This document shows, piece after piece, positions 4,243 through 25,750 of a stretch of 64,000 bases of DNA. Below the pieces are notes generated by a model that saw nothing but the letters and a program-made list of their open reading frames with translations, was not told the origin of the DNA and ran no database searches. Location: contig JBGSQF010000012.1 of the NCBI GenBank assembly GCA_041738235.1, forward strand, positions 10,363 to 74,362, given 5' to 3'. The number at the start of each line of letters is the position of its first letter. Positions within the stretch are counted from its first letter, which is position 1. The position numbers were made by a program, and so were the translations under genes. Origin of the DNA: Minisyncoccia bacterium. Its GTDB lineage: Bacteria > Patescibacteriota > Minisyncoccia > Moranbacterales > GCA-2747515.

Positions 4243-5139
4243 ATGCACAAAGAACCGTTCGCCATTAGGACAATACTTGTGACCCTCATTCCCACCGTCA
4301 TCATTCTGGCAGGCATAGGGTTCTATTTTTCTTCCAGACAAGTTGCACACGCCCCTACACTCCCCGATCCCGTACCAACACCAACACAAGCCTGTACGCA
4401 AGATTCCGACTGCACCGCACCCAATACTATGTGCGAGGCGATCCAAAGTATGGGCGTTACTTCTCCCAACGGCGGACCCACGACCACCACGATCGTCAAA
4501 GGTGTGTGTAAGTCCAAAGAGAATGCCCAATGCCATATAAATTCCGATTGCGTTTCAGGTCTTCTATGTCACAGCAATATGTGTACGGCGCCTATTGGCA
4601 ATGCGTGTAGCGGACCCACAGACACCTCTTGTGGAGAAGGCTATGCATGTACCGAAGATTGCGGACCACCGATCGTTCGTTCCAACGACCCTCCGGTGAC
4701 CAGCTACTCCTGCCAACTCAAAGGATATATGCGCCCCTGTCCGATATGTCTTGCCAAACACACACGTATCAACACACCCACCGGCGAGATCCCCGTGGAA
4801 GCACTTCAAGTGGGTATGTCTGTCTGGACGCTCAACCGTTCCGGAGAGCGTGTCCCGGCTCAGATCCTCAAGACGACACAGACGCCCGTTCCTACCACAC
4901 ACCAAGTCGTTCATATACAACTCAAAGACGGTCGCGAACTGTTCGCCTCACCCAACCACCCTATCGGTGACGGCCGAACCATCGGGAGTCTCTCTATCGG
5001 CGACATCCTGAATGGAAGCCTGGTCACGCTAGCCAAAAGAATTCCCTACCAAGAACAATACACCTACGACATTCTCCCTTCCGGAGACACTGGTCTCTAT
5101 TGGGCAAATGATATACTCCTCGATAGCACCCTTCGTTAA
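4243..5139 (+). CDS. membrane-anchored Cys-rich protein with C-terminal Hint (Hedgehog/intein-like, BIL-type) domain
   Basis: N-terminal TM (ILVTLIPTVIILAGIGFYF) and a Pro/Thr linker. Repeated DSDC/NSDC Cys-rich modules follow. C-terminus from nt 4717 reads CLAKHTRINTPTGEIPVEALQVGMSVW...THQVVHIQLKDGRELFASPNHPI, i.e. Hint block A (C-L-A-x-x-T-x-I) and block B (TxxHP). Confidence 0.6.
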   Translation: MHKEPFAIRTILVTLIPTVIILAGIGFYFSSRQVAHAPTLPDPVPTPTQACTQDSDCTAPNTMCEAIQSMGVTSPNGGPTTTTIVKGVCKSKENAQCHINSDCVSGLLCHSNMCTAPIGNACSGPTDTSCGEGYACTEDCGPPIVRSNDPPVTSYSCQLKGYMRPCPICLAKHTRINTPTGEIPVEALQVGMSVWTLNRSGERVPAQILKTTQTPVPTTHQVVHIQLKDGRELFASPNHPIGDGRTIGSLSIGDILNGSLVTLAKRIPYQEQYTYDILPSGDTGLYWANDILLDSTLR

Positions 5140-7681: not shown

Positions 7682-9697
7682 TCATTTGAGGTAAAAGGAG
7701 ATGGTGCGTTCCACCGTCGGGAACTCCCCGCATGTGGATCGGATAAGGACGCGGTAGGTCCTCCATCCTCCGTCTCCAAGCTTGATGTTGTCGTTGTCGA
7801 CCCTCTCGTGTGCGGATTGCCCGACACCGAGAATGCCGATGGTGTCGCGATCACGATAGGTGCCGGAGTTGATGAAGTACTGGGCCTCCGCTTCGCATGT
7901 CATTGGTCCATTCCCCACGTTTTGGAAATTCACGTTGGGGTGGTAGCGCCTTCCTTTGCTTCCGGTCCCGCCATCCCTCACGATCTTTCCGTCGTAGTCG
8001 AGCCACAGGTCCGTTATGGCGATACGGGGGATAGCCGGGTTCACATAGAACCAGAAGTCGGAGGCATTGTTGCCCTCATCCGCTTCCGTGACGTTTCCCT
8101 GATAGTCGGCTACGGCTCGTCCTCTCCACCAACCAGGGACATTTGCGGTAAAGGGCTCGCCTCCGGTATATTCCTGACTGATCGATCCAGGATTAAGCTC
8201 GTCCACGCCGTCGTCCATGACATAGTTGAGATTTCCATTTGGGGTTTGTAACTGATAGGCCATCCGTGATGCGGCCGCTTTCCTTCCCCCAATGTTCTCA
8301 ACGTTGGCCCAGAGACCGAAGTGGTTGCCTTGAGTCAGAGAGGTCCTTCCGTTCGTGAGTCCCGCTCCTGAGATCACCATATCCGGTCGGTAGAGGTTCG
8401 GAGCGTTAAGGTCGTAGGCGAAGGATTCGATTCGGGAGGTGTTATCTCCCTCATCGGATTCCGATACCTCGTCTTCCGCGTCGCCCTTGGTCTTGAACTC
8501 GACCCGGGTGGTGTTGACGCTGGGGATGGTATAGGTATACGTTTCCTGGATCATTTGCCCTTCGTCGAGCTTGGCGATCGTCATGTAGCCCCGGTTGATC
8601 TTGATCCAGTCCCCGCCGTCAAACCTGACATAGTAGTCGATCTCGATCGTGTCTTTCCCGGGGTCGGCCCAATTACCGGCGTCATCGTGTTCAGCAATTG
8701 CCTGTACACGAAGCTTGACCGTCAGGGGTCCGAGTGTATCGCGTCCTGCGATGAACTCGTTGCCGTCGGGATCGAGAATGTCGAAGTCGAAGGTGAGGTT
8801 GGTTTGAGTGGGGTTTCCGTTATACCCGTCACCGCCCACGCCGTAGGTGTTCCCGCTGGTCTTGCCCGTTTCATTCACTGCGCTCCATACGGAAGGATCG
8901 ACGGCACATTGCGGGCTGTTCTCGGCGACGCACTCCAGATAAAACTGAACATCCTGCATATCGCACCGAGAGTCGGGTGGCAGTTGGTTCCAGCACATGG
9001 TGGGAAACCAGGCACTCGTTACAGTGATCGGATTGGGGATGTTCGTAGGAATCCTCGACAGGTAGTTATCTGGACCGGTGTGGACGATGAAGTCGATGGG
9101 GTCGATGAGGCCATTGTCATAGTAAGACTTTCCATTTACGACAATGGGAAATCCATATTTGTCCCATGACCATCTCCCATATCCACTCGAAATCGGATTT
9201 GGGAGATCAGGGTGAACCACTCCAAAGTGAAGATGGTTCCCGCCGACCCAGTTCCCGATATACCCGATCGTCTCTCCGGCTTTGACCGTCACACCAGGAT
9301 CTTTGGCATCGCTCTTGCGAACGTGCCCATAAAGGACAACGAAATCTCCATACTCGTTACTACGATGACGAACGAGCAGGGCGATGTTGTCATTGGTGCC
9401 GTCGTTACTCCAATAGGATTGACTCCATGATTGCACGACACCGTCGGAAATGGCACGAACAGGCGTTCCATATCCGGCCAAGAGGTCGACGCCGATATGG
9501 TAGACGGGTCCGTTGTCTCCCGGTGGATAGCATCCATCGTGATATTCCGGCTTCGTGAGCCACTTACCACAGTCGGCAACCTTGAGATTATCCGTCCCAA
9601 CGGGATAGACGAATCCGGTTTGAGTGTAGATGGAGTCGGCGGAGGTTACCGTCGAGAGCATCAAGAGACACAGCGCGAGAAAGGCATGAATGCCCAT
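7682..9697 (-). CDS. secreted M23 (LytM) family metallopeptidase with long C-terminal beta-rich region
   Basis: Signal peptide MGIHAFLALCLLMLSTVTSA. M23 motifs HIGVDL...GTPVRA and GNHLHFGVV. About 450 C-terminal residues rich in G/N/D/T. GC-rich relative to its flanks. Confidence 0.8.
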   Translation of the reverse strand: MGIHAFLALCLLMLSTVTSADSIYTQTGFVYPVGTDNLKVADCGKWLTKPEYHDGCYPPGDNGPVYHIGVDLLAGYGTPVRAISDGVVQSWSQSYWSNDGTNDNIALLVRHRSNEYGDFVVLYGHVRKSDAKDPGVTVKAGETIGYIGNWVGGNHLHFGVVHPDLPNPISSGYGRWSWDKYGFPIVVNGKSYYDNGLIDPIDFIVHTGPDNYLSRIPTNIPNPITVTSAWFPTMCWNQLPPDSRCDMQDVQFYLECVAENSPQCAVDPSVWSAVNETGKTSGNTYGVGGDGYNGNPTQTNLTFDFDILDPDGNEFIAGRDTLGPLTVKLRVQAIAEHDDAGNWADPGKDTIEIDYYVRFDGGDWIKINRGYMTIAKLDEGQMIQETYTYTIPSVNTTRVEFKTKGDAEDEVSESDEGDNTSRIESFAYDLNAPNLYRPDMVISGAGLTNGRTSLTQGNHFGLWANVENIGGRKAAASRMAYQLQTPNGNLNYVMDDGVDELNPGSISQEYTGGEPFTANVPGWWRGRAVADYQGNVTEADEGNNASDFWFYVNPAIPRIAITDLWLDYDGKIVRDGGTGSKGRRYHPNVNFQNVGNGPMTCEAEAQYFINSGTYRDRDTIGILGVGQSAHERVDNDNIKLGDGGWRTYRVLIRSTCGEFPTVERTISFYLK

Positions 9698-10550: not shown

Positions 10551-10648
10551 TTCGACTTCCCGACTTTATGGACTTCCTGACTTTCGACTCTTAATCCCCC
10601 TAACTTTTGACTTTATGGACTTTATAGACTTTCAACTCTACAAACTCT
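10551..10648 (+). repeat. phased GACTTT repeat array, copy R2
   Basis: TTCGACTTCCCGACTTTATGGACTTCCTGACTTTCGACTC...TTTTGACTTTATGGACTTTATAGACTTTCAACTCTACAAACTC. Confidence 0.7.
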
Positions 10649-11315
10649 TACACACTTCCGTGCACGGATCGAGCCACGCGGATAGTTCCGCTTTTGATGC
10701 TACATATCCGCGAATGTTCGGCGTAGAGCCTTTAAAAAAACCAAGATGCAGATGCTTTCGTTCGCCATCGGTGTCGGCACTGCCACCGGCACCCAGTATG
10801 CCGATCTCTTCCCCCTGATCGACCTGGTCCCCCACCTTCCAATCCACACTTCCAAGAGCCAGATGTCCATATATCACCGAGATAGGATTGCCACGGAGAT
10901 CACACAACTGCGCCACCACTCCGCCGTATCCGGAAGCGGATCGCTTGAGGGTAAGTTTCCCCGTGCAGACGGCTCGGATCGGAACATCCACATTGGTTTC
11001 TGACGGAAATGTCTCAAGATCCGTACCGGTGTGATATCCGCGAAAACGCTCCGGCTGCACAGGTGAGGTCTTGGGGTCGATAAAAATACCGAAAGGCTTT
11101 TTGGTTACTCTTTCCGACACACGATCGATCGGCGACGCAAACTCCGGCGCCACCACAGCAGGCACCTCCGTCACCACGGGCGCCGCATTCTGGTCCGTCA
11201 CTGGGGGCGCGACAACATTCGAATTCTCCGAAACACTTTGTTGTCCTTTCCACAGCAAAACCCCCACCACCAAAATAACCACAGCAATTCCCGAAAGAAG
11301 AAATTTTTTGTACAT
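10638..11315 (-). CDS. M23 (LytM) family peptidase, membrane-anchored
   Basis: Signal anchor MYKKFLLSGIAVVILVVGVLL. M23 motifs GYHTGTDLE...VIYGHL...HLHLGFF. Confidence 0.8.
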   Translation of the reverse strand: MYKKFLLSGIAVVILVVGVLLWKGQQSVSENSNVVAPPVTDQNAAPVVTEVPAVVAPEFASPIDRVSERVTKKPFGIFIDPKTSPVQPERFRGYHTGTDLETFPSETNVDVPIRAVCTGKLTLKRSASGYGGVVAQLCDLRGNPISVIYGHLALGSVDWKVGDQVDQGEEIGILGAGGSADTDGERKHLHLGFFKGSTPNIRGYVASKAELSAWLDPCTEVCKSL

Positions 11316-11348: not shown

Positions 11349-12200
11349 TTATTTAACAACTTCATTAGATGCCCCACCTAAAACTTGCACATCCTCACTA
11401 ATACTCTCTTTTTTTTGTTCCGCTCCCACGATCTCACCTGTTAGTTTCTCCTCTATCAATTGGGGAGGATCATCCTTATTGATCATTTTTACTTCCCCCT
11501 CTAAAGGCTCTGGGACATCTTCACTTTTTACACTGTCAGCTACACAAGGTATTTTTGATTCGTTGTCTTGTGCCGGATTCAGTTTAACATCCCATCGATC
11601 TTGACTCTCCTGTTCCTTCTCTTTATTTTTATCAAAGTCAGGATGCTTATCACCGTGATCTTCTTCCTCATGAGAATTCTCTTTATGTTTGTCCGATCTA
11701 TGATCATCATCATCGTCTTTTTTGTCTTTGCATGAATGCTTTTTGTTTCTTTCATTAGAGCACTTTTTTGTATCCACCTTAAATGTTTTCGATACGATCT
11801 CGCTCTTCCATTCCACATTTTCATTATTTACAGCAACCGCCTGAAAGTACGTTGGATCTCCATCAGGAATAGAAACGCATGATCCTGAATAAGCGGTCCC
11901 ACCAGAAACCGGGTCACCGTCATTTGAAAACTCATACCAGATCGTGGCTGTGCCAGACGAAAGTCCCGAATATGCGAGTGACACACAAGGCGTTGTTTTA
12001 TAAAAACCATCTTCCCCATCCGGAAATTCCGGAGAAATAATTGCCTCGATCTCTGGGATCCAATGCGCAGCAGAAAATTCATTCTTCTGAACTAAGGCAC
12101 TATCTACAAACAGTGAATTTGTCCCGGAAATAGAATCCAAGTGAGCGCCTGACCAGACAAAGAAGAAGGCCAGCATTATTCTGGATATACTCTTTGCCAT
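11349..12200 (-). CDS. secreted protein with Asp/His/Lys-rich low-complexity segment, last gene of the sipW locus
   Basis: Likely start MAKSISRIMLAFFFVWSGA (signal peptide) at 12200; the longer ORF running to 12353 would overlap sipW. Contains KKHSCKDKKDDDDDHRSDKHKENSHEEEDHGDKH. Confidence 0.5.
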   Translation of the reverse strand: MAKSISRIMLAFFFVWSGAHLDSISGTNSLFVDSALVQKNEFSAAHWIPEIEAIISPEFPDGEDGFYKTTPCVSLAYSGLSSGTATIWYEFSNDGDPVSGGTAYSGSCVSIPDGDPTYFQAVAVNNENVEWKSEIVSKTFKVDTKKCSNERNKKHSCKDKKDDDDDHRSDKHKENSHEEEDHGDKHPDFDKNKEKEQESQDRWDVKLNPAQDNESKIPCVADSVKSEDVPEPLEGEVKMINKDDPPQLIEEKLTGEIVGAEQKKESISEDVQVLGGASNEVVK

Positions 12201-12220
12201 AAAGAAATAAGTTTCCTTCC

Positions 12221-12847
12221 TTACCATATAATTTTTCGCTTCGGTTTTCTTATAGAATTCGAAACAATCGATCGATCCGGTTTTATTATAATTATCGGTC
12301 TCTCTTTGACTGGTTCCAAGGTTCGTGAGGCCTTCTTCTTTCGACGACCCCAAGAACGCTCGATCTCTGCAACTATCTTCCTCAGTTCTTCATACACAAT
12401 AACAACAGCCGGAATAACAATGAACAGAATAAACCCAACTGGCTTTTTCACATAATCAACCGCATATCCCAAGTACGGGATCTGAAACAACACCTTTCCT
12501 ATAACATCACTTTCCGGAACCAGTTCCCCATCTTCAACTTCATTGGCATCTCCTTTAAAAACAAAAACCTTCTGTCCCTCTTTTGTGTCTTCTCGAACAA
12601 TGCGGTGGGTGATGGTCACGCTCTTATCGCTTGTTTGACGAGTTGCAATATCGCCAATTCCATATCCAGAAACCTTTCGAACAAGAATAACACTACCGGT
12701 ATGAATGGTAGGCTCCATAGACCCTGATTGCACCACAAAAGAGCGCAGACCAAGAACAGAGAACGTAGAAAGAGCTAGAAACCCTGCGATGACAATAAAC
12801 ACAACAACCACAACATTCGCCACGATCGAAAATATCTTTTTGAACAT
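12221..12847 (-). CDS. sipW: signal peptidase I, SipW/archaeal type (S26B)
   Basis: N-terminal TM, then VVQSGSMEPTIHTGSVILV (SGSMEPT catalytic Ser box of SipW-type SPases). A second TM follows, then a basic tail. Confidence 0.8.
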   Translation of the reverse strand: MFKKIFSIVANVVVVVFIVIAGFLALSTFSVLGLRSFVVQSGSMEPTIHTGSVILVRKVSGYGIGDIATRQTSDKSVTITHRIVREDTKEGQKVFVFKGDANEVEDGELVPESDVIGKVLFQIPYLGYAVDYVKKPVGFILFIVIPAVVIVYEELRKIVAEIERSWGRRKKKASRTLEPVKERPIIIIKPDRSIVSNSIRKPKRKIIW

Positions 12848-12969
12848 ATCAGACTCAAAACTAATTTAAGAAAACAAGCGATCAAACCACCCTATTACCC
12901 TTCACCAGAAAACATCTCCTTGCCACCCCCACCCCATGAAGTCTCACGGGGTGAAAGGGGTTTGGACCA

Positions 12970-13551
12970 TTAGAAACCTGAATTAAGATCAGCTGGCCAG
13001 ATCGTTGCCCCTGCCTGGCGAGCTTGTACATAAAGACTTGCATTATATACCTCATTCTGATACGAATCTCCGGCATTTACGCTCAACTTAACCGTCACCC
13101 GAAACTGTGACTTTCCACCAGCGGGGATAGTATAGTTGGCAGTATCTGCTCCAGTCGGGCTATCATAGAAGATCCCTGTTATAGGATCCACCGATGCCAA
13201 TGTTACCCAAACAAAACCATCCCATCGTTCTACCTTTGCCACGCTGATCATTGTATCGGTTAAGCTTGTGTCAACCCAATTGCCCACAGCCGCCCCACGG
13301 ATCTGCACGCCACTCGTACTCGTATTTTTGACATCAAAATTCACCAATGCCGTATCCCCAGGCAACAAGCCTGTGATATGAAATGGGGTCATTGTGGTAT
13401 CAGTATTTTGATCTTGAATATCAATTGTCAATGTCCCCGTTGTGATATCACTCCCAAGAACCTCACCTTTTACACTAAAATATGCGTATGTTCCCCCAAC
13501 GATCGCGACAGCTGCCGCAATAATGAGAAAACTTTTTAAGATCTGTTTCAT
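12970..13551 (-). CDS. TasA/camelysin-like (peptidase M73 family fold) secreted protein with SipW-cognate signal peptide
   Basis: MKQILKSFLIIAAAVAIVGGTYAYFS matches the SipW-cognate signal (GGGT.A.F). TGTLTIDI and LLPGDTALVNFDVKNTSTS parallel B. subtilis TasA segments ASGTLDL and LKPGDKLTKDFQFENNGS. Confidence 0.7.
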   Translation of the reverse strand: MKQILKSFLIIAAAVAIVGGTYAYFSVKGEVLGSDITTGTLTIDIQDQNTDTTMTPFHITGLLPGDTALVNFDVKNTSTSGVQIRGAAVGNWVDTSLTDTMISVAKVERWDGFVWVTLASVDPITGIFYDSPTGADTANYTIPAGGKSQFRVTVKLSVNAGDSYQNEVYNASLYVQARQAGATIWPADLNSGF

Positions 13552-13699
13552 ATATTTGTAATTATCTTTTATTATTTATTTTATTCTGTCACATCGACGC
13601 TTACAGGGGGGATGCCCGTGACAGATCTTCTCAAGAAGCGATAGTATCTCCTTGCTCCCCCTGCCCCAAGAGAAGCCTCAGGGCAAGAGGAGTTTGGAT

Positions 13700-14284
13700 T
13701 TATTCACTCCAATCCGGATTCTCAAGTTGCGTCCCATCCACAACAATATCAGCAGTCGCACTTCCACCTTGCATATCGTTATCCGCAGATGGATCAAGCT
13801 GGAAAGAAAGCTTAAAACAATGAGAGATGTTTACTCCAAGCGAACCCGTTGGCGCCGTTATCGAACTTACCGGAGATTCAAAACTGAGATCGGATAACTT
13901 CCCAGTATTCGAATACGTTACAGAACTGATATCCCCAGGATCTCCGCCACAAAACCCGTGTTCCACTTTCACATTGATCTTGTCATAAAATCCTGGAATT
14001 GTTTCACTCCATGTCCCATCTTGGAAACGATACTTGATCGGTACAGTCGAAAGTTCATTATATACCGTCATCTTATACGGCCCGTACCATACACCGGGTT
14101 CCATCTCTGTAAGATTCACACTTTGACTTTCCGTCACGTCACCGTTCAACTTAAAATCAAGTTTTCCAGAAGCAAACGTGTTGCCACTCACCACAGCCTG
14201 ATCGGTGAAATATGCCCATGTCGCCCCTCCCGCCACTACTGCGACTGCAACTACAACGAAGATGCTTTTCAGAATATTTTTCAT
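13700..14284 (-). CDS. TasA/camelysin-like secreted protein, paralog of 12970..13551
   Basis: Start chosen at MKNILKSIFVVVAVAVVAGGATWAYFTDQAVVSGNTFASGKLDFKL, a classic SipW-cognate signal plus the TasA-like ATFASGTLDL-type block. The ORF-track extension to 14383 adds an implausible 33-aa leader. Confidence 0.7.
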   Translation of the reverse strand: MKNILKSIFVVVAVAVVAGGATWAYFTDQAVVSGNTFASGKLDFKLNGDVTESQSVNLTEMEPGVWYGPYKMTVYNELSTVPIKYRFQDGTWSETIPGFYDKINVKVEHGFCGGDPGDISSVTYSNTGKLSDLSFESPVSSITAPTGSLGVNISHCFKLSFQLDPSADNDMQGGSATADIVVDGTQLENPDWSE

Positions 14285-14662
14285 ACATCGTATAGAAAAT
14301 GAATTATACTTTTTAGAATATTTGTCACATCGACCTTGTGACGTGCATACCGATACGTTCAAACATAACAAAACGCTCAACAAAAAAACCGACGAGGATC
14401 AAACAGAAAGATCTGTTGAACCTTCGTCGGTTCTCTCCAGGAAACTGATGACATACAAAGAATGGATGTTCATAAAGGGAGAGCGGGATCGCTAATTTAT
14501 TTTTTTTTAAAAACCTTCAGAAAAACTCCTTATAAATCATACTACAAAAGATCTGTAAAAATATTCCAAACCATTCTCTTTTGATCATTATTTTATAAAA
14601 TTTCTATAAAAATATTAATTTTCTTCAACTTCTTTCACTTGTTTTGTCAATCCGCGCCCCAC

Positions 14663-14800
14663 TTACTCATTTTCCATGAGGTCTTTCTGGTACCGCCCTG
14701 GCGTGATGATCTCTTCGAGCCTCAAGTGATGCGGAGCCCGAATAAGAATCCCGATAACAAAAAGTATCACTACATTCCCAACCGTGAAGGAAATAAAAAA
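14663..14800 (-). pseudogene. 3' gene fragment paralogous to the membrane hydrolase gene 27102..27593; no start codon
   Basis: Minus-strand translation FFISFTVGNVVILFVIGILIRAPHHLRLEEIITPGRYQKDLMENE* aligns with the C-terminus of the 27102..27593 product (...YRALHHFRLEEIITPERYQKDLMEGIGD). About 65 nt at 14679-14744 are near-identical to 27124-27188. Confidence 0.5.
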
Positions 14801-14826
14801 GCCCCGATCTAACGGGGCTCTTTTTA
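14795..14826. terminator. bidirectional rho-independent terminator
   Basis: AAAAAAGCCCCGATCTAACGGGGCTCTTTTT: a 5-bp GC stem flanked by an A-run and a T-run, immediately downstream of the minus-strand gene 14837..15411. Confidence 0.6.
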
Positions 14827-14836
14827 TACCAGAAGA

Positions 14837-15411
14837 TTATCGTCTGTTATTGTCTTTTCGATCATGCTCTTTGTTGTAATCATTCTTTCCCTCTTCAAAT
14901 CCTTGGTTGTATCCCTCGTCATATCCACCATTGTATTCATTGTCATGACCATTTCGATAGTCATCGTTATCGTCATCTTTCTTTCCGTCGTCATGTCCAT
15001 CGTTGTATCCATCTTCATGACCATCCCTGTGCCCTCTGTCATGATCCCTATCATTGTGATCATCATCCCGATTGTCATGTCCATAGCGAGACTTATGCTC
15101 TTTCTTTACCTTCTTGGCTTTTTTATCCTTATCCCCTCTGCCATCTGTTACGATCGCTACATTATCTCCCTCCCCCACTTCCTCACTAAATTTTGTATCC
15201 TTGTTCGTTGAAACTTCAATATCCTTTCCGTCAAAAGTTCTGATCTTGAGTTTGTCTCGATCAAAACTCGTCACTGTGCCGGTGTATGTTTTGGCAGTGA
15301 ATTTTTCGATAAACCCGGAACGCGCCTCAGCTGAGGTAGCGGCAAAACCAACTCCTGCGCATAGAACTCCCAAAACCACAGATGTTCCGATAATTTTCTT
15401 GGCTAACATAG
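14837..15411 (-). CDS. secreted protein with extreme Asp/His/Asn/Gly-rich C-terminal low-complexity tail
   Basis: Start chosen at MLAKKIIGTSVVLGVLCAGVGFAATSAEA (signal peptide). Tail reads HDNRDDDHNDRDHDRGHRDGHEDGYNDGHDDGKKDDDNDDYRNGHDNEYNGGYDEGYNQGFEEG. Confidence 0.5.
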
Positions 15412-15536: not shown

Positions 15537-17258
15537 CTAATCGTACTTCAATTTAAAAACAACCATAGAATCGGAATCATATACTTCTTCAAAATAGGGA
15601 GAATTATAAATGCCGGAGAATCCCTCCCAATCATCCGTCTTGGCAACGACAATATGCGTCACATCCGAGCTTTTCCAAAAATCACGATCATCCGGGATCA
15701 CTTCACTCTTGAGTAATGCCACATGATCGTCCCAGATACTTTTCTCGGACTCAAGTAAAAACCGATTGTCCGTATCATTGCTCGTGATCATCGGCTGAGA
15801 GAAGAAAGCTTGCGCAGGACTCCCCACCATCGCATAGCCGGCAAAGTTCAATCGGATATAGGCGTGCCACGGGAGAAATAGAACGTTTCTCGTCTCAGGG
15901 TCTTCTTGCAATACTCTTTTCGACTCATACCAGCCAAAAGGATAGTCATGCGACGCAACCCTGGCCAGAACTCCCCAAAGCAACGTCCCGGCCCACAGAA
16001 ATGGAATAATAGAAACCACGATTACCGAAACAACTCTCACCCACATTCCTTCGCCCATACGAAACCATCTCCCCAAAGATGAAATCGCATACAACACCCC
16101 AAACGGCACCAGAAGAGCATACGCAAAAGCCAACACACCAGAGATCTTTTCTGTATCCCGAAGTCCCCGGAAAAATGGCACCACTCCGTAGAACAGATCG
16201 ATGATCGGTCGCGTCAGGGCACTGCCGTATCCCACGGAAAGCAAAAGGGCGGGAACGAAAGCGCAAACCATGGCCAGTGCAAAATCGTTCCTCCGACGAA
16301 TCTCACGCCACGCACCCAAACCAAAGAACACCCAAACCACGATCGGGACTGCCCACCACCACGAGAAATAGTCTTTGAACTGCAAGAAATCGTTACTCCA
16401 AAATCCATACAGTGCCGCCACGTTAAAAAACATCCCGAATGTCGGATCGCTCAGTGTGGCAAATGCCTCGAAGTCCCCCATCCCGATATTGGCAAACGTC
16501 CTTGTATCGTCAAAGAATCCAAAAATCCAGAAACTATTTACCACCAAAAAGATCCCAACGAATACCACTCCCCTCTCAAAAAACTCTTTCCACTTTCGAT
16601 TTTCTAACTTTCGACTTTCTGTTTCTTCACTTTCAACTTTACTGACTTTCAACCTTACAAGCTTTTGATCTCCCAACTTTATGACTTTATAGACTTTTGA
16701 CTGCATGACCCACAACACTAGTAGAAATCCCGAAGCAATATACGCCCAATGAAGACTCAGTATCGGATAAATGGAGAAGGCAAACGCAAAGACCAAAAAT
16801 CGACGCCAGTCCGCACGCTCAAGTAGTCGCAAAAAAAGCAACACCATGATCGGTAAAAACCCATACCCGAGCATCACAAACCAATGCCCCGCCATAAAGC
16901 GATCGTACACGTGAGGATTTATCATATAGAGCATCCCCGCGCTCACTGCGAGCGACTGTGGCATGAAGCGAAGTGCCAGTCGATACAGCGTAAATCCCGG
17001 GAGAAATAGAACCAGCGTCAGCACGATCTTTTGTAGAACTTCGGCCGGTATCAAAAGGTTCAGAAAAACAAACAATGCGCGTATCGGGAAACCGGGATCA
17101 ATCCCATTTCGCATACTATCGGCAAGATTCAAGTTTGGCCCCCAGACCATATCGGTCAAGAATACAAAACCAGACGCATAAAGAGGCGCCATAATAGCCA
17201 TAGCCACAAGCAAGAAGATCCCTATCGGATATATTTCCCTTAATATCTTTCTCATCAT
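15537..17258 (-). CDS. large polytopic membrane protein (putative GT-C-like membrane glycosyltransferase/polymerase) carrying an in-frame repeat-derived hydrophilic insert
   Basis: At least 12 TM helices plus a C-terminal soluble domain. Residues KVIKLGDQKLVRLKVSKVESEETESRKLENRKWKEF are encoded by the GACTTT-type repeat at 16588-16705. Confidence 0.6.
   Translation of the reverse strand: MMRKILREIYPIGIFLLVAMAIMAPLYASGFVFLTDMVWGPNLNLADSMRNGIDPGFPIRALFVFLNLLIPAEVLQKIVLTLVLFLPGFTLYRLALRFMPQSLAVSAGMLYMINPHVYDRFMAGHWFVMLGYGFLPIMVLLFLRLLERADWRRFLVFAFAFSIYPILSLHWAYIASGFLLVLWVMQSKVYKVIKLGDQKLVRLKVSKVESEETESRKLENRKWKEFFERGVVFVGIFLVVNSFWIFGFFDDTRTFANIGMGDFEAFATLSDPTFGMFFNVAALYGFWSNDFLQFKDYFSWWWAVPIVVWVFFGLGAWREIRRRNDFALAMVCAFVPALLLSVGYGSALTRPIIDLFYGVVPFFRGLRDTEKISGVLAFAYALLVPFGVLYAISSLGRWFRMGEGMWVRVVSVIVVSIIPFLWAGTLLWGVLARVASHDYPFGWYESKRVLQEDPETRNVLFLPWHAYIRLNFAGYAMVGSPAQAFFSQPMITSNDTDNRFLLESEKSIWDDHVALLKSEVIPDDRDFWKSSDVTHIVVAKTDDWEGFSGIYNSPYFEEVYDSDSMVVFKLKYD
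16588..16705 (+). repeat. phased GACTTT repeat array, copy R3, embedded in-frame in CDS 15537..17258
   Basis: CACTTTCGATTTTCTAACTTTCGACTTTCTG...CAACTTTATGACTTTATAGACTTTTGACTG. Confidence 0.7.
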
Positions 17259-18014: not shown

Positions 18015-20540
18015 TTACAGCTTGTATAGATTCGGTGAACTCAAAACTTTCGGTGCTTTAGCCATTCGTCTTCTCTTCACAAGATCGTATCCCACATATC
18101 CCAGACATCCCACAAATATAATTCCGATAACGATAAAACCCATATAAAAATATCGATTGAAATCATTTTCTACGACCAACAAAATATCGTATGTCCCATC
18201 ATCATTTTTCTTGCAAATGTTTCTATTTTTACACAAGTCATCAACATTAATCCACCAAGAATTGGAATAGTTGTTAATCTTATAATGAGTGTCTTCTGGA
18301 ATTGTCGCTTTACCCCATGTTTCCCAGAAATGTCCGTTGGGCAGATTATCGTTGCGTATCGAACCATCAAAGTTCTTAGAGATAAATTCATTCCCAGAGG
18401 CTGAGATTAATTTTTGGTCAATCATTCCCTGTGCTTCACTTTTGGTCGCCTGCCGATTGGATTCAACATCTGAAACACTATAGTTACCCAGAGGATTAAG
18501 GTTCTTTTGTCTTTTATCTTCAAACTTAATCGGATACGCCTTCCAGTTTTCACTATATTGCTCGGGATAAACTAAAAGAAAGGAATTTTTCACACCGTGT
18601 AAAACTACTTGTTCTTTCCAGTGATTGACGGCTTTATATTCAACCGATCTGAGCTTTGGCGATTCATCTACCTGCTGTGTAGCATGAAGATAATATGAAT
18701 CAATGTCTTTCGGTTGATATTCGGTTAAGCGAACATTGTCATAAAGATTATCCACCTCTTGGCTACCATCCGAAGACGCATAAAAAAATATGCTGATACT
18801 TTTTATATCACTAATCTCTGGATCGATGATCTTCTCATATATATGCCAATTACTATCCCGAACCTGGATCATTTCCGAGTGAGAATCTTGTTGGTCACCA
18901 CTCCTAAGATTATAATAATACATTACTTTCCCACCTCTAATATTTTTATAATCAAATTGTAACTTATACCTCATCCCCTCTAATATCTCAACAGAAAAAG
19001 TCTTTGACACACAGGCAAAATGATTTTTAGAAGAAAGCTCCATAGACTGATTCCCATCACTAGCATCTAGCGATAACCTAACTCCCAAATCTGGATCCCC
19101 TGGCCTTGTATCACTACAATCACCTGGCTTTTCTTGCCAAAGTCCACTTTCAAAGGAGGCGTCCTCAGAATCAATTAGATTGCTCTTATTAACAACATAT
19201 CCAAAGTCATTCTCACCCAAATCAAGAAAGATATCCTTCGCTAGCACAATATCCTTATCAATCAACGATCCAATATCGATCTTTCTTGTTTCAGATAGTG
19301 AATATTCTTTGAGTTGAATATTGTCATATAAGTTAGTCACTTCTTTACTACCATCTGACGGGGCATATAGATACAGATCTATATATTTTATACTTTTTAT
19401 TGGATCCCCCACATTTGTGTTACTTACCCCCTCATTAGAAGCAAGTAGATCCTCTTGTCCCTCCTTATTATCATATTCAGGATATACAAAATTTTCCTTT
19501 ATTTTCTCAGGATCTATAACTATAGAATATGTATGCCATTTATCATCCTTTGCATTAATTGTTTCAGCAGAAGCAAATCCCGAAGATATAATGTTGTTCT
19601 CATTATGTAACTTATAATAATAACGAATGTCTTCTCCAGTAATGTTTTTATAATCAAAAGACAAGCGATATATTTTATCACTCTGAATTTGAACGGGAAA
19701 AGTCTTGTTTGTGCAAGCATGATGGTTTACAGAGGATAGTTTCAGAGCTGTGTATCCTTCTGTAGCATCAAAAACCACTTCCTGCATTATTTCTGGCACC
19801 CCTTCAAGTTTATTGCTACAATCTCCAGGTTCTTTCTGCCACAAACCATTCTCAAACGAAATGCTCTCATTATCGGATAATACATCTCGAGTAGGTTTAA
19901 ATACCATTATCTCTTTATTCTCTATATCTTCTACCGATAGATTTGTACCCACGCGATCAAACATATCTAAAAAACGGCCATTAAATCTCAATAAATGATC
20001 CGCCGCAATATTGTCCAATGAAAAGAATTCTTTTTCATTAATGACTCCTGGAGAATCCTTAATTATTATTTCCCTCCGAGGAAGTACAAAATTTAACTTC
20101 CTTTGAGTTTCGTCGTAAGTGATCTGCAAATACGTATCCCTGTTTATATTTTTTTCAAGATAGAAATTCAGATCAGAACCACCACCATTGTTAAATAACC
20201 ATTTATCCCCCTTGTTTCCAAGAGTTAGAAACACCTCTCTACTTTGCCCGATAACTGGGCGGTAATTTTTTTTGTCGAAGCTCCCGTCCAAAATCCCACC
20301 CCCCTCTGACGATATATCTTTTAGACTTTCTATCCCAACATCTCCCAATATAATACGTTCCAAATATCCCAAACCACTAATAGGATCAGAAAAATTTGAT
20401 CCCCGTATAAAATAAAAAATAACCCCAATAATTATAAGATAAAAAAGTGCTGTCAGAATAAAATACTTCTTATTACTATTATTGACCATCTCTTTTAATA
20501 TTCTTATGTCTAGGAATAAATAAACACAGCACACCAACAA
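18015..20540 (-). CDS. large membrane-anchored protein with N- and C-terminal TM segments and an internal tandem duplication of an ~170-aa Cys-containing domain
   Basis: TM YFILTALFYLIIIGVIFYFI near the N-terminus and YFYMGFIVIGIIFVGCLGYVGY near the C-terminus. Repeats SFENGLWQKEPGDCS...ACTNKTF...FDYKNI...LYDNIQLKEY and SFESGLWQEKPGDCS...ACVSKTF...FDYKNI...LYDNVRLTEY. An alternative start at 20489 (MVNNSNKK) is possible. Confidence 0.6.
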   Translation of the reverse strand: MLVCCVYLFLDIRILKEMVNNSNKKYFILTALFYLIIIGVIFYFIRGSNFSDPISGLGYLERIILGDVGIESLKDISSEGGGILDGSFDKKNYRPVIGQSREVFLTLGNKGDKWLFNNGGGSDLNFYLEKNINRDTYLQITYDETQRKLNFVLPRREIIIKDSPGVINEKEFFSLDNIAADHLLRFNGRFLDMFDRVGTNLSVEDIENKEIMVFKPTRDVLSDNESISFENGLWQKEPGDCSNKLEGVPEIMQEVVFDATEGYTALKLSSVNHHACTNKTFPVQIQSDKIYRLSFDYKNITGEDIRYYYKLHNENNIISSGFASAETINAKDDKWHTYSIVIDPEKIKENFVYPEYDNKEGQEDLLASNEGVSNTNVGDPIKSIKYIDLYLYAPSDGSKEVTNLYDNIQLKEYSLSETRKIDIGSLIDKDIVLAKDIFLDLGENDFGYVVNKSNLIDSEDASFESGLWQEKPGDCSDTRPGDPDLGVRLSLDASDGNQSMELSSKNHFACVSKTFSVEILEGMRYKLQFDYKNIRGGKVMYYYNLRSGDQQDSHSEMIQVRDSNWHIYEKIIDPEISDIKSISIFFYASSDGSQEVDNLYDNVRLTEYQPKDIDSYYLHATQQVDESPKLRSVEYKAVNHWKEQVVLHGVKNSFLLVYPEQYSENWKAYPIKFEDKRQKNLNPLGNYSVSDVESNRQATKSEAQGMIDQKLISASGNEFISKNFDGSIRNDNLPNGHFWETWGKATIPEDTHYKINNYSNSWWINVDDLCKNRNICKKNDDGTYDILLVVENDFNRYFYMGFIVIGIIFVGCLGYVGYDLVKRRRMAKAPKVLSSPNLYKL

Positions 20541-22677
20541 TCAAAGTTATTACTGAAACAACTATACTCAGATACCAATACAATTGTGGCTTATAATATA
20601 AAACCATTTCTAAATCAATACTACCATCTAAATTCTCTTTATAATATCTCTTAGAAAAATTTTGTTTAATATAACTTGAATCAACTATCCATTTATTCAT
20701 AAAATTACCATCCTCATAATGAGAACTATTGAAAATTGATCCTAAACCAAACAAGAAAAAATTATTGTATGAACTATCACTTTTTTCGTCATTATTTTTT
20801 ACAAGGTACAATCTCCATGCAGGCGTATAAGATTCGTTAAAATGTATACTCTTTTTACCATCAATATGCTCTAACCTTAATAAATAACTTACCGGAGAGC
20901 GCTTTGCAAAAGTAAACTTACTATAATCAAATACTGCGTTGTCCACATTACTCACAGAAATCAGCGGAAGATTTTCATCATACGTCTTGTAGATATCGAA
21001 GTTCTCATTCCCAAAAACTTTGTTAAAATTTTCTTTTAAATACTTCTCAGTTTCATCCGAATCATCATTTTGATTAAAAATCTCATAATTGATGTCTTTA
21101 TGAAAAACTATGTATTTAATATGAAATCTCCTCCAATTATCAACCGGCACAGCTGAAGCATCTTTTAGTAAAGTATATATATTCTTATTTGCAAGACTGG
21201 CCAGCTCAGATGTTTTACTAAAGCATGATAGTCTATTCTGAGTACTTAAAAATGGCGAGAATCCATAATATTTAAAATTATAGCCAAACCAAATTTTATC
21301 TGATGTCGGATATATCATACACCTATCGCCATCTTTAACCCCTATCTCATCTAATGCAAGGTCAATATTCTGATAGTTTTTTGGTTCACTGCCAAGAGAA
21401 AAATAATTTATAAAACCACCCAAAAATCCATACATACTCAAAACAACAATATAGCCAATAAAGATTCTTGCAAGAATACGATTTGATTGAATTGCTATAT
21501 AAATAAGACAAGATGCGGCTATCAGTAAGATCAGAGAAAACTTCAAAGAATTCCTCCATGCTGTCATGTAACTAATATTTTCAAAAAGATAGCCAAATAC
21601 ACTGTCTAATGGATAGAATCCATGCATGGCAACCAACGGAATGGATACTAGAAATATAATGAATATCCTACTCCCAATAGCTTTTTTGAAAAAAATTTTT
21701 CTCAATGCGGCATATGCTATAATTAGGATAGGTATGAAACTTATTACCCTAAATACAAGACTACTATATATACCCTTATAATTAAACTGATCAACGATCC
21801 CGCTATATGACCAATGTTTAGAAAATAATCTACCAGAAATAAATGAGAGTAAATATTCAAGAGAAAAATATTTTTTTTGTGTAACTATATAATCTGTGAG
21901 TAAAGCCTTATTAAAATCACTCGATATAAAGAGATCGCGCACATTTATAAGTAGCAATATTTGTTCAACCAAAGAGGGAATGTTAATAAATACGTACAAA
22001 AGAAGCAACATTATAATTCTTTTCCACTCTTTATAATTGACAGCTAAAAAAAATAAGAAAAGAGTAAGAAACTGAATTGGAGGATACGAAACATTAACAA
22101 AAATTGGCATATTTATTAGCAAGAGGAAGAAAAAAGTAATCAGATATTTCTTTTGTCCCACGCGAATATACCGCAATCCAATACCCAGCAATAAAGGGGT
22201 TATTAAAAGAAAAATATAATATAGATGCAACCAACTACGTACAAAATCAAATGTAATAAGATTAATACAATAAAATAAAGCTACGACACTCGCTAAAAAT
22301 ACATTGTATTTATATCCAAATCCATAAGAAATCTCCTTAAGAATTAATCTGACTCCAAAATAAGCGAATGAATAAAAAACTATCTTAAGAAAAACCTGCA
22401 CACCCACCGAATCAAAGAGAAATGAAAGGCCATAAACTATTGTGTAAAAAAGAATATTTCCATACCTCCCAGCACTAAATCCTCCGGAGCCAAGATGATC
22501 TGACCACAGATAAAATTGGCGATCTAGATTGACACCAATGCTGTCCTCAAAAAATCCCAAGTCCCCTCCAACCAAATATTCCCCCGCATGCAAAACATAG
22601 GGGATAATTATAAAAAATATCAATGCAATATAAATTGCATTCTTATATAAAAATGTTTTCATAGTATCTCCTGGCAA
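20479..22677 (-). CDS. large polytopic membrane protein (GT-C-like / glycan polymerase-like), extremely AT-rich
   Basis: About 14 TM helices in the N-terminal 430 aa, then a soluble domain and a C-terminal TM (YWYLSIVVSVITLIVGVLCLFI). Confidence 0.6.
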   Translation of the reverse strand: MPGDTMKTFLYKNAIYIALIFFIIIPYVLHAGEYLVGGDLGFFEDSIGVNLDRQFYLWSDHLGSGGFSAGRYGNILFYTIVYGLSFLFDSVGVQVFLKIVFYSFAYFGVRLILKEISYGFGYKYNVFLASVVALFYCINLITFDFVRSWLHLYYIFLLITPLLLGIGLRYIRVGQKKYLITFFFLLLINMPIFVNVSYPPIQFLTLFLFFLAVNYKEWKRIIMLLLLYVFINIPSLVEQILLLINVRDLFISSDFNKALLTDYIVTQKKYFSLEYLLSFISGRLFSKHWSYSGIVDQFNYKGIYSSLVFRVISFIPILIIAYAALRKIFFKKAIGSRIFIIFLVSIPLVAMHGFYPLDSVFGYLFENISYMTAWRNSLKFSLILLIAASCLIYIAIQSNRILARIFIGYIVVLSMYGFLGGFINYFSLGSEPKNYQNIDLALDEIGVKDGDRCMIYPTSDKIWFGYNFKYYGFSPFLSTQNRLSCFSKTSELASLANKNIYTLLKDASAVPVDNWRRFHIKYIVFHKDINYEIFNQNDDSDETEKYLKENFNKVFGNENFDIYKTYDENLPLISVSNVDNAVFDYSKFTFAKRSPVSYLLRLEHIDGKKSIHFNESYTPAWRLYLVKNNDEKSDSSYNNFFLFGLGSIFNSSHYEDGNFMNKWIVDSSYIKQNFSKRYYKENLDGSIDLEMVLYYKPQLYWYLSIVVSVITLIVGVLCLFIPRHKNIKRDGQ

Positions 22678-23887
22678 TATTCCTCCACTCGTACTTTTTA
22701 ACAGATTGGAGACCCTTCCTTACCATCCTGGAATAGTCTTCTTGGCTTATGTGCATAATTCTCTTAGCAAAATCTTCATAACGTCCATTATCTACATCAA
22801 CTAATATTCCATTCTCTCCATCACTAATAATCTCATTAAAAACTGGTATATTTGAACCAATAAAGAGAGTGCCAGCAGCCCACGCCTCCAACAATACCTG
22901 ACCAAACGACTCACTCTTACTCAACAAAAAAACCATATGCGCATTTCCAAATATTGACGGCATATCGCTCTTTGGCTTTGCTCCATGAAAATATACACGA
23001 TCTCCTATTCCTAGCTTTCTTGACAAAGAAACAAGATCATCCATTTCATCGCCGTCCCCAACAACATCTAATACAAAATTGTATCCGTTCGTCATAAGGT
23101 AATGGGATATACGCAGAACCACCTCCACCCTTTTATTATCAGTAAGGTTTCCGGCAAAAAGTAGTCTGATTTTTCCAGTAAGTATTTTCTCATTAAAAGT
23201 GAAAGTATCAACATCTACTCCAACTGGTATTATTGCGTACGACCTCTCTCTAAAATCTCTTTTTAACTTCTTTCTAAAATAGTCACGTGCCACATTATTA
23301 TTAAATATATAGAAATCAAAAAGGTTAAAATAGTATCTTGAAAAAAACAACATTATATTCTTAATTATCCCAAAGAGAAAAAGCTCTAAGGCACTATTAT
23401 TCTGATGAAGTGTCTTTCCGTCATTTTCTAAAATGTTTTTCATATCAGGCAGATCAGTATATTGCAACCTTCCGATAACCCTTCTCAAATTCTTATTAAA
23501 TAGCTTATCAATTTGGAAAAAGATTATAAGATTAAATGATAATAGTCCATTTGGAAGCATATGCCATATAACATCAACCTTGTTCTCCTTAAGAACTTTC
23601 ATTGAGGCCATCATCACAAGAAAATAAAACCTTATCCTTAACCATAGTGTAATCTTCAAATCTGGCCTTGAAAGAACTTCAATAACCTTAACATTTTTTC
23701 CCAATTTCTCCTTTTGCTTACATTTTCCACAAATAACATAATACTCTAATCTTCGATCCAACACTGTTATATCCTCTATAACTCGTGCCGCTGCATAAAA
23801 CTCACTCTGGGAAGAAGAGTCTAGTATATAATGAGCTGGACTTATTAAAACTTTTACGGAATTCTTTTCTTTCTTAATGCTGGACAT
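22643..23887 (-). CDS. glycosyltransferase family 1 (GT4)
   Basis: C-terminal SKSESFGQVLLEAWAAGTLFIGSNIPVFNEIISDGENGILVD GT-B donor-binding motif. Confidence 0.8.
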   Translation of the reverse strand: MSSIKKEKNSVKVLISPAHYILDSSSQSEFYAAARVIEDITVLDRRLEYYVICGKCKQKEKLGKNVKVIEVLSRPDLKITLWLRIRFYFLVMMASMKVLKENKVDVIWHMLPNGLLSFNLIIFFQIDKLFNKNLRRVIGRLQYTDLPDMKNILENDGKTLHQNNSALELFLFGIIKNIMLFFSRYYFNLFDFYIFNNNVARDYFRKKLKRDFRERSYAIIPVGVDVDTFTFNEKILTGKIRLLFAGNLTDNKRVEVVLRISHYLMTNGYNFVLDVVGDGDEMDDLVSLSRKLGIGDRVYFHGAKPKSDMPSIFGNAHMVFLLSKSESFGQVLLEAWAAGTLFIGSNIPVFNEIISDGENGILVDVDNGRYEDFAKRIMHISQEDYSRMVRKGLQSVKKYEWRNIARRYYENIFI

Positions 23888-23891
23888 ATGA

Positions 23892-24719
23892 TCAAAATAT
23901 TTTTCTATAAACTCTAAAAAGATACTCCGTCATGCCTATCGGCAAAGGGAGATATGCAAATAACAAAACACCCAAATTAGCATACAAATCCAGAAATGCT
24001 GGTTTATAATTATATTTTTTGTAAGCACTGTGCCTAACGCTCAAGGTAGCCCTTACGTTCTCCTTAGTCCTTGCCGATGTTATAGAATACTCATGCCTCC
24101 TATACCGTAGCAGAATAGCTTGCACGTTTGCAAAAGAGTAATACTGTCCAATTCGAAAAGTCATATCCAAATCTTCTGCTTGTTTTATATGCTCATCATA
24201 CTTTCCAACTCTATCAAAGACTGTTTTTCGAATCATTGCAACTCCTTGAGAAACAGGCGAATATCGAAAAATTTTCTTTCTTAATTTATCATCAGATCTT
24301 TCATACTTTTGAAGTGCTAAAACCCCTTTTTCATTAAAGAATTGTAACCACCCTCCACAAATACCAACATCTGGGTTTTTCTCCATAAAAGCATATTGCC
24401 TCTCTATTCTATTTACTACAGAAATATCATCAGAATCCTGCCATACCACATATTTTCCCTTTGCCATTGAAACTAACTTGTTTCTATTAATAGGAATTCC
24501 CATATTCTTTTCATTCTTAACGGCGGTAATCCTACTGTCTTGTTTTTCGTATTTCTGAATAATGTTCCATGTCTTATCAGTTGAACAATCGTCAATAATA
24601 ATAAACTCAAAATCCTTGAAGGTTTGATTCAGAATACTTTCGATTGCCTCGGAAATATACTTTTCTGAATTATAGGCGGGCATTAATACCGAGACTTTGG
24701 GCGCATTGAATTCCATCAT
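23892..24719 (-). CDS. glycosyltransferase family 2
   Basis: VSVLMPAYNSEKYISEAIESILNQTFKDFEFIIIDDCSTDKT (GT-A fold with DxD context). Confidence 0.8.
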   Translation of the reverse strand: MMEFNAPKVSVLMPAYNSEKYISEAIESILNQTFKDFEFIIIDDCSTDKTWNIIQKYEKQDSRITAVKNEKNMGIPINRNKLVSMAKGKYVVWQDSDDISVVNRIERQYAFMEKNPDVGICGGWLQFFNEKGVLALQKYERSDDKLRKKIFRYSPVSQGVAMIRKTVFDRVGKYDEHIKQAEDLDMTFRIGQYYSFANVQAILLRYRRHEYSITSARTKENVRATLSVRHSAYKKYNYKPAFLDLYANLGVLLFAYLPLPIGMTEYLFRVYRKIF

Positions 24720-24734
24720 TTTACTCTTTACAAA

Positions 24735-25682
24735 TTAATTTCTTGTGTTTCTTTTCCTTACCACGTACAATGGTCTATTTGAGACATCTTTGTGAATACT
24801 TCCAATATAAAGTGCAATCAGTCCCAAACAAATGAGGATAATACCGACCAAGAAAAGGAGAATGACCGCAAGGATCGCCGGACCGGAGAAATTTAATCCA
24901 TAAGGATCTTTAAATATGTATTGTTCGATAAATATAAAAAGTCCCAGTATTCCAGATGTCAGAGTAATTAAGATGCCCAAATATCCGGCGATCTTTAAGG
25001 GGAAAAGACTTTGCGATATAAAACTCGAAAATGCCAATTTAAGAAGTTTGGCTGTACTATAACTCGCTTTTCCACTGGCTCGCTCATTGGCCTGAAAATG
25101 GATGTATTCTCTCCGAAAACCCAACCAATCCAAAAGCCCCCGCGTGATACGCTCGTGTTCGGTCAAGCGATTGAATTCATCGATCACGATCCGATCGATC
25201 AAGCGAAAATCGGTGGAACCAGATACCGATCCATGTTCACTGATAAACGTCATTATCGCATTAAACACAGCAGAACCCCATTTTTTGATAAGTCCCTCGC
25301 CTTTGTTTCTCTCTCTGATACCGATCACCATTTCTGCCCCCGCTTCCCACTTGGTGATGAATTCCGGTATGCGGTCAATTGGGTGTTGTAGGTCGGCATC
25401 TATCACGATGCACGCTTCTCCTTTACAGTGGTGTATCCCGGCGGTTGTCGCTTCCTCCTTGCCGAAGTTTCTCGAAAAATCTATAAGCCTCACGCTTGGA
25501 TCCAATTGCATGATCTTCTCGACCTCCGCAAGCGTTCCGTCAGCACTCCCATCATTTACAAATGTCATCTCAAACACGTATTTCCCGGCGAATTTCGTGA
25601 TAATTTTCTTGAGCTCAACATACACCAATGGAACGTTCTTTTCCTCGTTGTATACCGGGATGATGATGGAGATAAGTTTCAT
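24735..25682 (-). CDS. polyprenol-phosphate glycosyltransferase (GT2, DPM1/GtrB/ArnC-like) with C-terminal TM helices
   Basis: MKLISIIIPVYNEEKNVP...FVNDGSADGT...IDADLQHP. Two C-terminal TM helices. Confidence 0.8.
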   Translation of the reverse strand: MKLISIIIPVYNEEKNVPLVYVELKKIITKFAGKYVFEMTFVNDGSADGTLAEVEKIMQLDPSVRLIDFSRNFGKEEATTAGIHHCKGEACIVIDADLQHPIDRIPEFITKWEAGAEMVIGIRERNKGEGLIKKWGSAVFNAIMTFISEHGSVSGSTDFRLIDRIVIDEFNRLTEHERITRGLLDWLGFRREYIHFQANERASGKASYSTAKLLKLAFSSFISQSLFPLKIAGYLGILITLTSGILGLFIFIEQYIFKDPYGLNFSGPAILAVILLFLVGIILICLGLIALYIGSIHKDVSNRPLYVVRKRNTRN

Positions 25683-25693
25683 AGGAGTAATTT

Positions 25694-25732
25694 AGTCCAA
25701 AGTCTATAAAGTCTATCGAGTCCAAAGTTAAA
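25694..25732 (-). repeat. GACTTT repeat, copy R7 (inverted orientation)
   Basis: Plus strand GTCCAAAGTCTATAAAGTCTATCGAGTCCAAAGTTAAAG is the reverse complement of CTTTAACTTTGGACTCGATAGACTTTATAGACTTTGGAC. It shares CTCGATAGACTTTATAGACT with R6. Confidence 0.65.
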
Positions 25733-25750
25733 GAGTGTGAGCGTGATATT

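Follow-up and report, generated by a model that had tools for sequence, protein, structure and literature searches.

A four-gene locus encoding TasA-like proteins and a signal peptidase

We analysed a 64-kb window of a Minisyncoccia bacterium genome (the whole 64,000-nucleotide stretch, from contig JBGSQF010000012.1) and describe here an operon of four co-directional minus-strand genes that spans positions 14284 to 11349. All four open reading frames (ORFs) lie where a first-pass annotation of the same DNA had placed them. They encode two TasA-like proteins, a signal peptidase of the SipW type and a fourth protein that shares an N-terminal segment with the TasA-like pair. We read the four genes as a SipW-processed module of TasA-family proteins, with a probability of about 0.9. 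The genes are as follows:

13700–14284, minus strand: TasA-like subunit 1, 194 amino acids (aa) from ATG; matches PF12389, TIGR04088 and the TasA profile
12970–13551, minus strand: TasA-like subunit 2, 193 aa; matches PF12389; distant paralogue of subunit 1
12221–12847, minus strand: signal peptidase I of the SipW/archaeal–endoplasmic reticulum (ER) type, 208 aa; SGSMEPT box, N- and C-terminal membrane segments
11349–12200, minus strand: probable third SipW-type substrate and TapA-like minor subunit, 283 aa; assigned from profile–profile alignment, conserved columns and synteny

Two start sites call for comment. The mechanical ORF of TasA-like 1 reaches a TTG at 14383, upstream of the ATG used here. 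The ATG at 12200 chosen for the fourth protein has AAGGAAGGA before it, and public gene calls begin 27 nt earlier, at the ATG at 12227, giving a 292-aa product (P0033). The motifs singled out in the first-pass annotation (GGATWAYFTD, GGTYAYFS, NTFASGKLDFKL, LLPGDTALVNFDVKN and KDDDDDHRSDKH) were every one found in the sequence.

The two small proteins are distant members of the TasA/camelysin family

The two small proteins had been described as TasA/camelysin-like, and the family models bear this out. Both exceed the Pfam gathering threshold of 22.5 bits for PF12389 (Peptidase_M73), TasA-like 1 with 28.1 bits and TasA-like 2 with 29.8 bits. TasA-like 1 also reaches 37 bits with TIGR04088, the model of SipW-cognate signals, above its cutoff of 19. 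These scores and that of the peptidase with TIGR02228 (see below) lie far above chance expectation. One homologue, from a Moranbacteria metagenome-assembled genome (MAG), is named "SipW-dependent-type signal peptide-containing protein" in its NCBI record.

Metagenomic homologue families of TasA-like 1 and TasA-like 2 were assembled into alignments and profiles, termed A1 and A2, respectively. Compared with the PDB, A1 matched solved TasA (5of1/8aur) at an E value of 1e-4, through an N-terminal block NTFxxGxLD and a C-terminal block NxxQG...TQ, while A2 alone gave a weak match (E 0.28). Aligning A1 with A2 in hhalign gave a full-length match of 99.4% across 179 columns at ~22% identity, and we therefore consider TasA-like 1 and 2 to be old paralogues. 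AlphaFold2 predicted β-sandwiches for both, with mean-confidence (predicted local distance difference test, pLDDT) values of 75 and 67.5, respectively. For both models, the top Foldseek match in the PDB is the TasA fibre, 8aur_A (probability 1.00; E 1.2e-3 for subunit 1 and 2.1e-4 for subunit 2); the structural matches also include CanX and AbpA. The equivalog model of Bacillus TasA, NF046066, yielded 20.2 bits and did not reach its cutoff of 450. Because PF12389 and A1 match, yet NF046066 does not, we place the two proteins as distant TasA/camelysin family members and not as TasA orthologues.

Alignment to TasA predicts SipW-type cleavage of TasA-like 1 between ATWA(24) and YFTD, which would leave YFTDQAVVSGNTFASG as the mature N-terminus, a putative donor strand. 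For TasA-like 2, cleavage is predicted between GTYA(23) and YFSV.

The peptidase carries a SipW-like active site

The third gene had been called an archaeal-type signal peptidase I, and its product indeed passes TIGR02228, the model for such enzymes, with 108.3 bits (cutoff 51.85). In the PDB, human SEC11A and SEC11C match it best (~1e-9), and the alignment takes in the SGSMEP, HR and GDxN boxes. The predicted catalytic residues are a Ser43/His81 dyad, as in S26B enzymes, plus Asp100; S43, H81, D100 and D106 are unchanged across 11 peptidase orthologues. The equivalog model of Bacillus SipW, NF046067, was not reached (99.4 bits, cutoff 190). SipW itself reportedly has a Ser/His/Asp arrangement, described by Tjalsma et al. 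in 2000, which the window peptidase matches.

The fourth protein resembles TapA in its design

The fourth protein consists of a signal peptide, a TasA-like N-terminal strand, a β-domain of ~90 aa with two cysteines (C72 and C108) and a charged tail. Cleavage is predicted between GTNS(29) and LFVD. In its orthologues, the signal peptide ends in T-N-[AS] and is followed by [LAF]F[ST]D...N...[ST][AG].WIP, and the two-Cys domain carries the pattern IYYEFS.DGDP..GG. Six positions are invariant in the alignment: T27, F31, W47, P49, C72 and C108. In hhalign, the family aligns with A1 across the signal and strand segment (89%, E 2e-6) and with A2 over the signal and donor-strand columns (87%, E 4e-6). 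TIGR04088 matches 19 of 50 family members at E ≤ 0.1 (best E 2.5e-6), and the orthologue at locus L006 scores 17.5 bits (cutoff 19).

An exhaustive search of 1.84 billion representatives returned 133 relatives, ~50 of them with the same N-terminal architecture; a word-indexed homologue search with the N-terminal 156 aa gave a single match. The two-Cys domain also occurs by itself, repeated inside giant surface proteins. What follows it varies. Among 50 relatives, 33 carry a lamin-tail domain (LTD; PF00932) and 12 carry Big_7, and an LTD is also present in the counterparts at L003, L006, L014 and L015. The window copy has no LTD at E ≤ 10 and instead ends in a 138-aa low-complexity tail rich in K, E, D and H, to which charged, His-rich stretches in the L009 and L013 counterparts are comparable. 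The first-pass annotation had presented this product as a D/H-rich secreted protein. Its length of 283 aa and the low-complexity segment are as described, but the D/H/K/E tail is the variable part; what is conserved is the SipW-type signal, the TasA-like strand and the two-Cys β-domain.

Since these three elements are conserved together, we regard the fourth protein as a probable functional counterpart of TapA. The claim is that it works like TapA, not that it belongs to the TapA family. General Pfam, NCBIfam and PDB-linked searches, which included no TapA-specific model or sequence, gave no TapA match. The nearest weak match of the protein's body is Fn3_assoc, and in 5 of 50 relatives an OmpL47-type barrel model matches, in the body or elsewhere in the protein.

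Stem-loops follow both subunit genes

Two RNA stem-loops interrupt the operon:

13655–13692, minus strand: stem-loop immediately 3′ of TasA-like 1, with a 16-bp stem and without a U-tract; CAAGGAGAT follows it
12925–12961, minus strand: stem-loop directly after TasA-like 2 and just before the peptidase gene; −27.7 kcal/mol, z −2.3

The first folds at −31.5 kcal/mol (z −4.8), and none of 200 shuffled sequences folded as well. The two are G+C-rich, lack a U-tract, are 81% identical to each other and end in the same CAAGGAGAT. A hairpin after the TasA-like gene that precedes the peptidase was found in 10 of 12 related loci tested, with z from −3.1 to −6.4 and a different sequence. Downstream of the fourth gene and of the M23 gene, regions taken as controls were unstructured. 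The stem-loops may serve as attenuator or as 3′ stabiliser, so that subunit transcripts remain in excess, a reading that fits the ~100:1 ratio of TasA to TapA quoted in PMC10151520.

The gene order is conserved across related genomes

The closest relatives are MAGs named Candidatus Moraniibacteriota and Levyibacteriota, within the candidate phyla radiation (CPR). A GTDB scan with A2 found eight loci in MAGs bearing these names. In all ten loci found via the subunits, from the GTDB scan and from subunit-homologue contigs, the order is one or two TasA-like genes, the peptidase and the strand-bearing protein. An independent metagenome scan, seeded with a four-sequence alignment of the fourth protein, gave six loci; four of these include DNA upstream, and in each the fourth gene is directly preceded by the peptidase, with a TasA-like gene further up. 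Overall, the module occurs with the same gene order in ~14 independent CPR loci, the synteny that the first-pass annotation had proposed to look for, and a homologue of the fourth protein directly follows the peptidase in every locus where this position is visible.

The loci differ around this core. Three of the eight from the GTDB scan (L009 CAYLJX01, L011 CAZETL01 and L012 CAYQPQ01) are titled 'uncultured Bdellovibrionales', a label that may be wrong; the module is present in these MAGs, with a subunit 52–55% identical to the Moraniibacteriota type. In the lineage of L003 (8736–9947), L004 and L005, an inserted gene for a 403-aa AAA_14/DUF4143 ATPase separates the TasA-like gene from the peptidase. 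In several relatives, the module runs on with an extra protein of 250–345 aa (L003 12220–13107, L014 8903–9940, L015 6497–7522 and L006 8039–8791), which matches the TasA-like profiles weakly and has an ordinary signal peptide, not a SipW-type one. L006 also has two SpaA_4-domain genes downstream. Neither this extra protein nor SpaA_4-domain genes are present in the window.

Three neighbours in the window, the M23 peptidase, a 215-aa protein and the upstream D/H-rich protein, were considered as further members of the module and rejected, as the related loci contain no homologue of any of them.

A donor-strand model and its alternatives

How might the four products work together? A single promoter would drive all four genes, and Sec would export the fourth protein together with both TasA-like proteins, which probably fold as jelly-rolls. 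The co-encoded peptidase would then cut the three precursors after a T-x-A/S motif, giving N-termini of the form [YL]F[TSV]D...N.F..G; by alignment, the cuts would fall between A24 and Y25, A23 and Y24, and S29 and L30, exposing YFTDQAVVSGNTF, YFSVKGEVLGSDI and LFVDSALVQKNEF, respectively. These N-termini would serve as donor strands, each inserting into the β-sandwich of the next subunit, and the TasA-like proteins would polymerise as homopolymers or as a mixed polymer. The fourth protein, with the same kind of strand on a different and already complete immunoglobulin (Ig)-like body, could supply the first strand and so nucleate the fibre. It would remain at one fibre end, as a cell-proximal anchor or a distal adhesin, with its binding function in the variable C-terminal module (lamin-tail in most relatives, the K/E/D/H-rich tail here). 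The stem-loops would keep subunit mRNA in excess over the mRNAs of the peptidase and the minor subunit. A donor-strand-exchange fibre of this kind, started or capped by a fourth protein whose variable module binds something, is in our judgement probable, with considerable reserve.

That reserve comes from several observations that weigh against the model or against parts of it. No fibre has been seen. In both small proteins, the PF12389 match is limited to the N-terminal 50–70 residues (residues 11–64 and 13–80), and the confidence of the two structural models is moderate. SipW-cognate signals had been proposed for both; with TIGR04088 this holds for TasA-like 1, while TasA-like 2 remains below the cutoff at 13.4 bits. 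The fourth protein of the window has no TIGR04088 match and reads FVD where its relatives have F[ST]D. The case for it as a SipW substrate rests on the profile–profile alignment and on its relatives.

The three substrates could alternatively stay unpolymerised, as secreted or surface-bound β-sandwich proteins that might bind glycans or form a coat or matrix, and the peptidase would then serve only their unusual signal peptides. We think this unlikely. The best-conserved segment common to all three is the donor-strand segment of TasA, and non-polymerising proteins would offer no obvious role for so strict a link to a minor protein that bears a strand, nor for the hairpins after the subunit genes. 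Nor does a soluble form argue for such proteins, as the soluble state of genuine TasA is also a self-complemented monomer. The absence of any other signal peptidase, in a search confined to the 64-kb window, also counts against a specialised enzyme: CPR genomes are small, and the peptidase might be the general signal peptidase I, adjacent to TasA-like genes by accident. This is improbable given that it lies between a TasA-like gene and a homologue of the fourth protein in ~14 independent loci whose proteins are 32–58% identical, and that a SipW-cognate motif is found in all three neighbours. Further TasA-like or SipW-type genes were likewise not found within the window.

Database names would suggest yet another function. 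The Pfam name Peptidase_M73 points to camelysin-type metalloproteases, and homologues bear the Joint Genome Institute (JGI) label 'predicted ribosomally synthesized peptide with SipW-like signal peptide', which points to ribosomally made peptide precursors. Either identity is very hard to credit: neither TasA-like protein has an HExxH or other metal-binding motif, both are predicted to be folded jelly-rolls of ~170 residues and not short peptides, and the solved member of the family is a fibre subunit. We retain the SipW-processed TasA-family module as the reading of the four genes. The tapA-sipW-tasA logic that the first-pass annotation saw in them is supported, with the small proteins matching the family models and the peptidase keeping its catalytic dyad.

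Comparison with known filament systems

In Bacillus subtilis, the TasA donor strand comprises residues 28–38, directly after the SipW cut, and inserts into the next subunit (PMC9674648). The TapA N-terminus resembles this strand, and the proposal is that it provides the first strand or nucleates fibres (PMC9674648). TapA has an Ig-fold with one disulfide, needs only its N-terminal residues and is ~100-fold rarer than TasA (PMC10151520). Like tapA-sipW-tasA, the window operon includes a signal peptidase of the ER/archaeal type that is dedicated to it and whose active site is Ser/His/Asp. In both, the major subunit, for which a jelly-roll fold is probable in the window, carries a donor-strand motif right after the T-W-A cleavage site, and the minor protein has only this N-terminal strand in common with it, its Ig-like body containing a Cys pair. 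It differs in its gene order (tasA-like, tasA-like, sipW, minor protein) and in having two distant subunit paralogues. Moreover, the window subunits are less than 20% identical to TasA, the TasA and SipW equivalog models are not reached, the general searches detected no TapA homology for the body of the fourth protein, and the host belongs to the CPR and not to the Firmicutes.

Bacillus cereus has two camelysins plus SipW (PMC10151520), and its sipW-calY1-calY2 genes resemble the window operon in placing two camelysin/TasA paralogues beside SipW. By contrast, B. cereus lacks a TapA-like gene, whereas the window module has a conserved strand-bearing minor protein. The BsaA family of Clostridium perfringens (TIGR04090) likewise comprises SipW-dependent matrix proteins; TasA-like 2 matches it weakly, its 21.6 bits lying far under the cutoff of 60.

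Jelly-roll subunits joined by donor strands are found in archaeal filaments, namely the Pyrobaculum AbpA/AbpB bundling pili and the Pyrodictium cannulae CanA/CanX, although their proteins have no sequence similarity to the window proteins that hidden Markov models detect. Pyrobaculum AbpB recalls the fourth protein in being a minor protein that is larger and bears a strand, and a role as initiator or adhesin has been proposed for it, but the Pyrobaculum operon has no dedicated signal peptidase (PMC9245690).

Implications for CPR bacteria

The first-pass annotation considered such an apparatus essentially uncharacterised outside Firmicutes, a view that is out of date. Filaments of the TasA superfamily have already been solved in archaea, and Wang et al. 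2022 listed Patescibacteria among the phyla with PF12389, from a Pfam survey (PMC9245690). Beyond that one sentence in PMC9245690, we found no literature on this CPR operon, on the fourth-protein family or on SipW/camelysin in CPR bacteria. The gain is limited, in that Patescibacteria TasA homologues already figure in Pfam surveys and a function can here only be proposed. What is new is that the same logic appears with a different gene order, with a paralogue pair and a TapA-like starter together, and with a starter from a distinct modular family.

To our knowledge, type IV pili are at present almost the sole explanation offered for how CPR/Patescibacteria attach to their hosts. Beside them, a TasA-type fibre module that is conserved and self-contained would be another candidate structure, and one that is easily tested: it comprises only four genes, includes neither chaperone nor usher, and both its cleavage sites and its donor strands have been predicted. 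Its use may lie in a matrix or in attachment. Speculatively, Moraniibacteriota and Levyibacteriota might use it as a modular surface fibre to hold on to host cells, surfaces or extracellular DNA. Members of the fourth-protein family would then be interchangeable tips or anchors, and the target would depend on their cargo domain, be it lamin-tail, Big_7 or a His/Asp-rich tail. If this were true, the adhesive fibre would be a second CPR adhesive organelle beside type IV pili. A strand-bearing starter with exchangeable cargo would recur here with a body that lacks detected TapA homology, which would extend the tapA-sipW-tasA logic and support a repeated evolution of TapA-like nucleators around subunits of the TasA family.

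Operon boundary and promoter

Upstream of TasA-like 1, three features mark the start of the operon:

14795–14824, minus strand: intrinsic terminator of the upstream, unrelated gene; stem of 12 pairs (6 G-C) followed by a T-run; 5′ boundary of the operon
14500–14640, minus strand: AT-rich putative promoter region; G+C content (GC) 0.20, against 0.435 for the whole window
14618–14590, minus strand: sigma-70-like site TTAATA-17-TAAAAT from a consensus scan; putative promoter

An AT-rich promoter region had been drawn from 14285 to 14640. The AT-rich stretch is real but narrower than this, the GC of 14285–14500 being 0.38.

The gene adjoining the operon upstream (14837–15409, minus strand) has its own terminator and encodes a protein with a Sec signal and a small β-domain. 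Its 90-aa tail consists mostly of D, G, N, H, R and Y (22 D and 9 H), which makes the product a second His/Asp-rich secreted protein beside the tail of the fourth gene. No homologue of it was found in the related loci.

Genomic surroundings

The window consists of ordinary chromosomal DNA from a genome of the CPR type, with genes for FtsEX, RF-2-type release factor domains, YceG, a ClpB-like protein, RecG, TsaD and an extracytoplasmic function (ECF)-type sigma factor. M23 cell-wall hydrolases and glycan genes had been noted near the operon, and both are present, with M23 genes at 10638–11315 and 7682–9697 and many glycosyltransferase (GT) genes across the window; the M23 genes lie outside the conserved module. 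At 7682–9697 (minus strand), a secreted protein of 671 aa combines an M23 peptidase with CARDB domains; the GC is locally high there, 0.56 at 8001–9000.

Between 18000 and 25000, the GC falls to 0.30–0.36, against 0.435 overall. This low-GC island contains two large ORFs without any Pfam match (18015–20540 and 20479–22677), after which genes for GT1, GT2, GT2 and a Polysacc_synt flippase follow at 22643–27085; it is possibly an acquired surface-glycan cluster. Further along, a single 1621-aa ORF (36711–41576, minus strand) combines two GT2 domains with a GT4/GT1 domain and adjoins a 686-aa GT2+GT4 fusion (33055–35115) and a PIG-L deacetylase. A 298-aa Hint_2 (intein/hedgehog-like) protein is encoded at 4243–5139 (plus strand) amid genes for the small membrane proteins MscL, TspO, DUF2177 and DUF1295. 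Finally, 15537–17258 (minus strand) encodes a 573-aa polytopic membrane protein without a Pfam match, whose N-terminus has a sub-threshold match (105 bits versus 210) to the MmpA trehalose-lipid delivery family.

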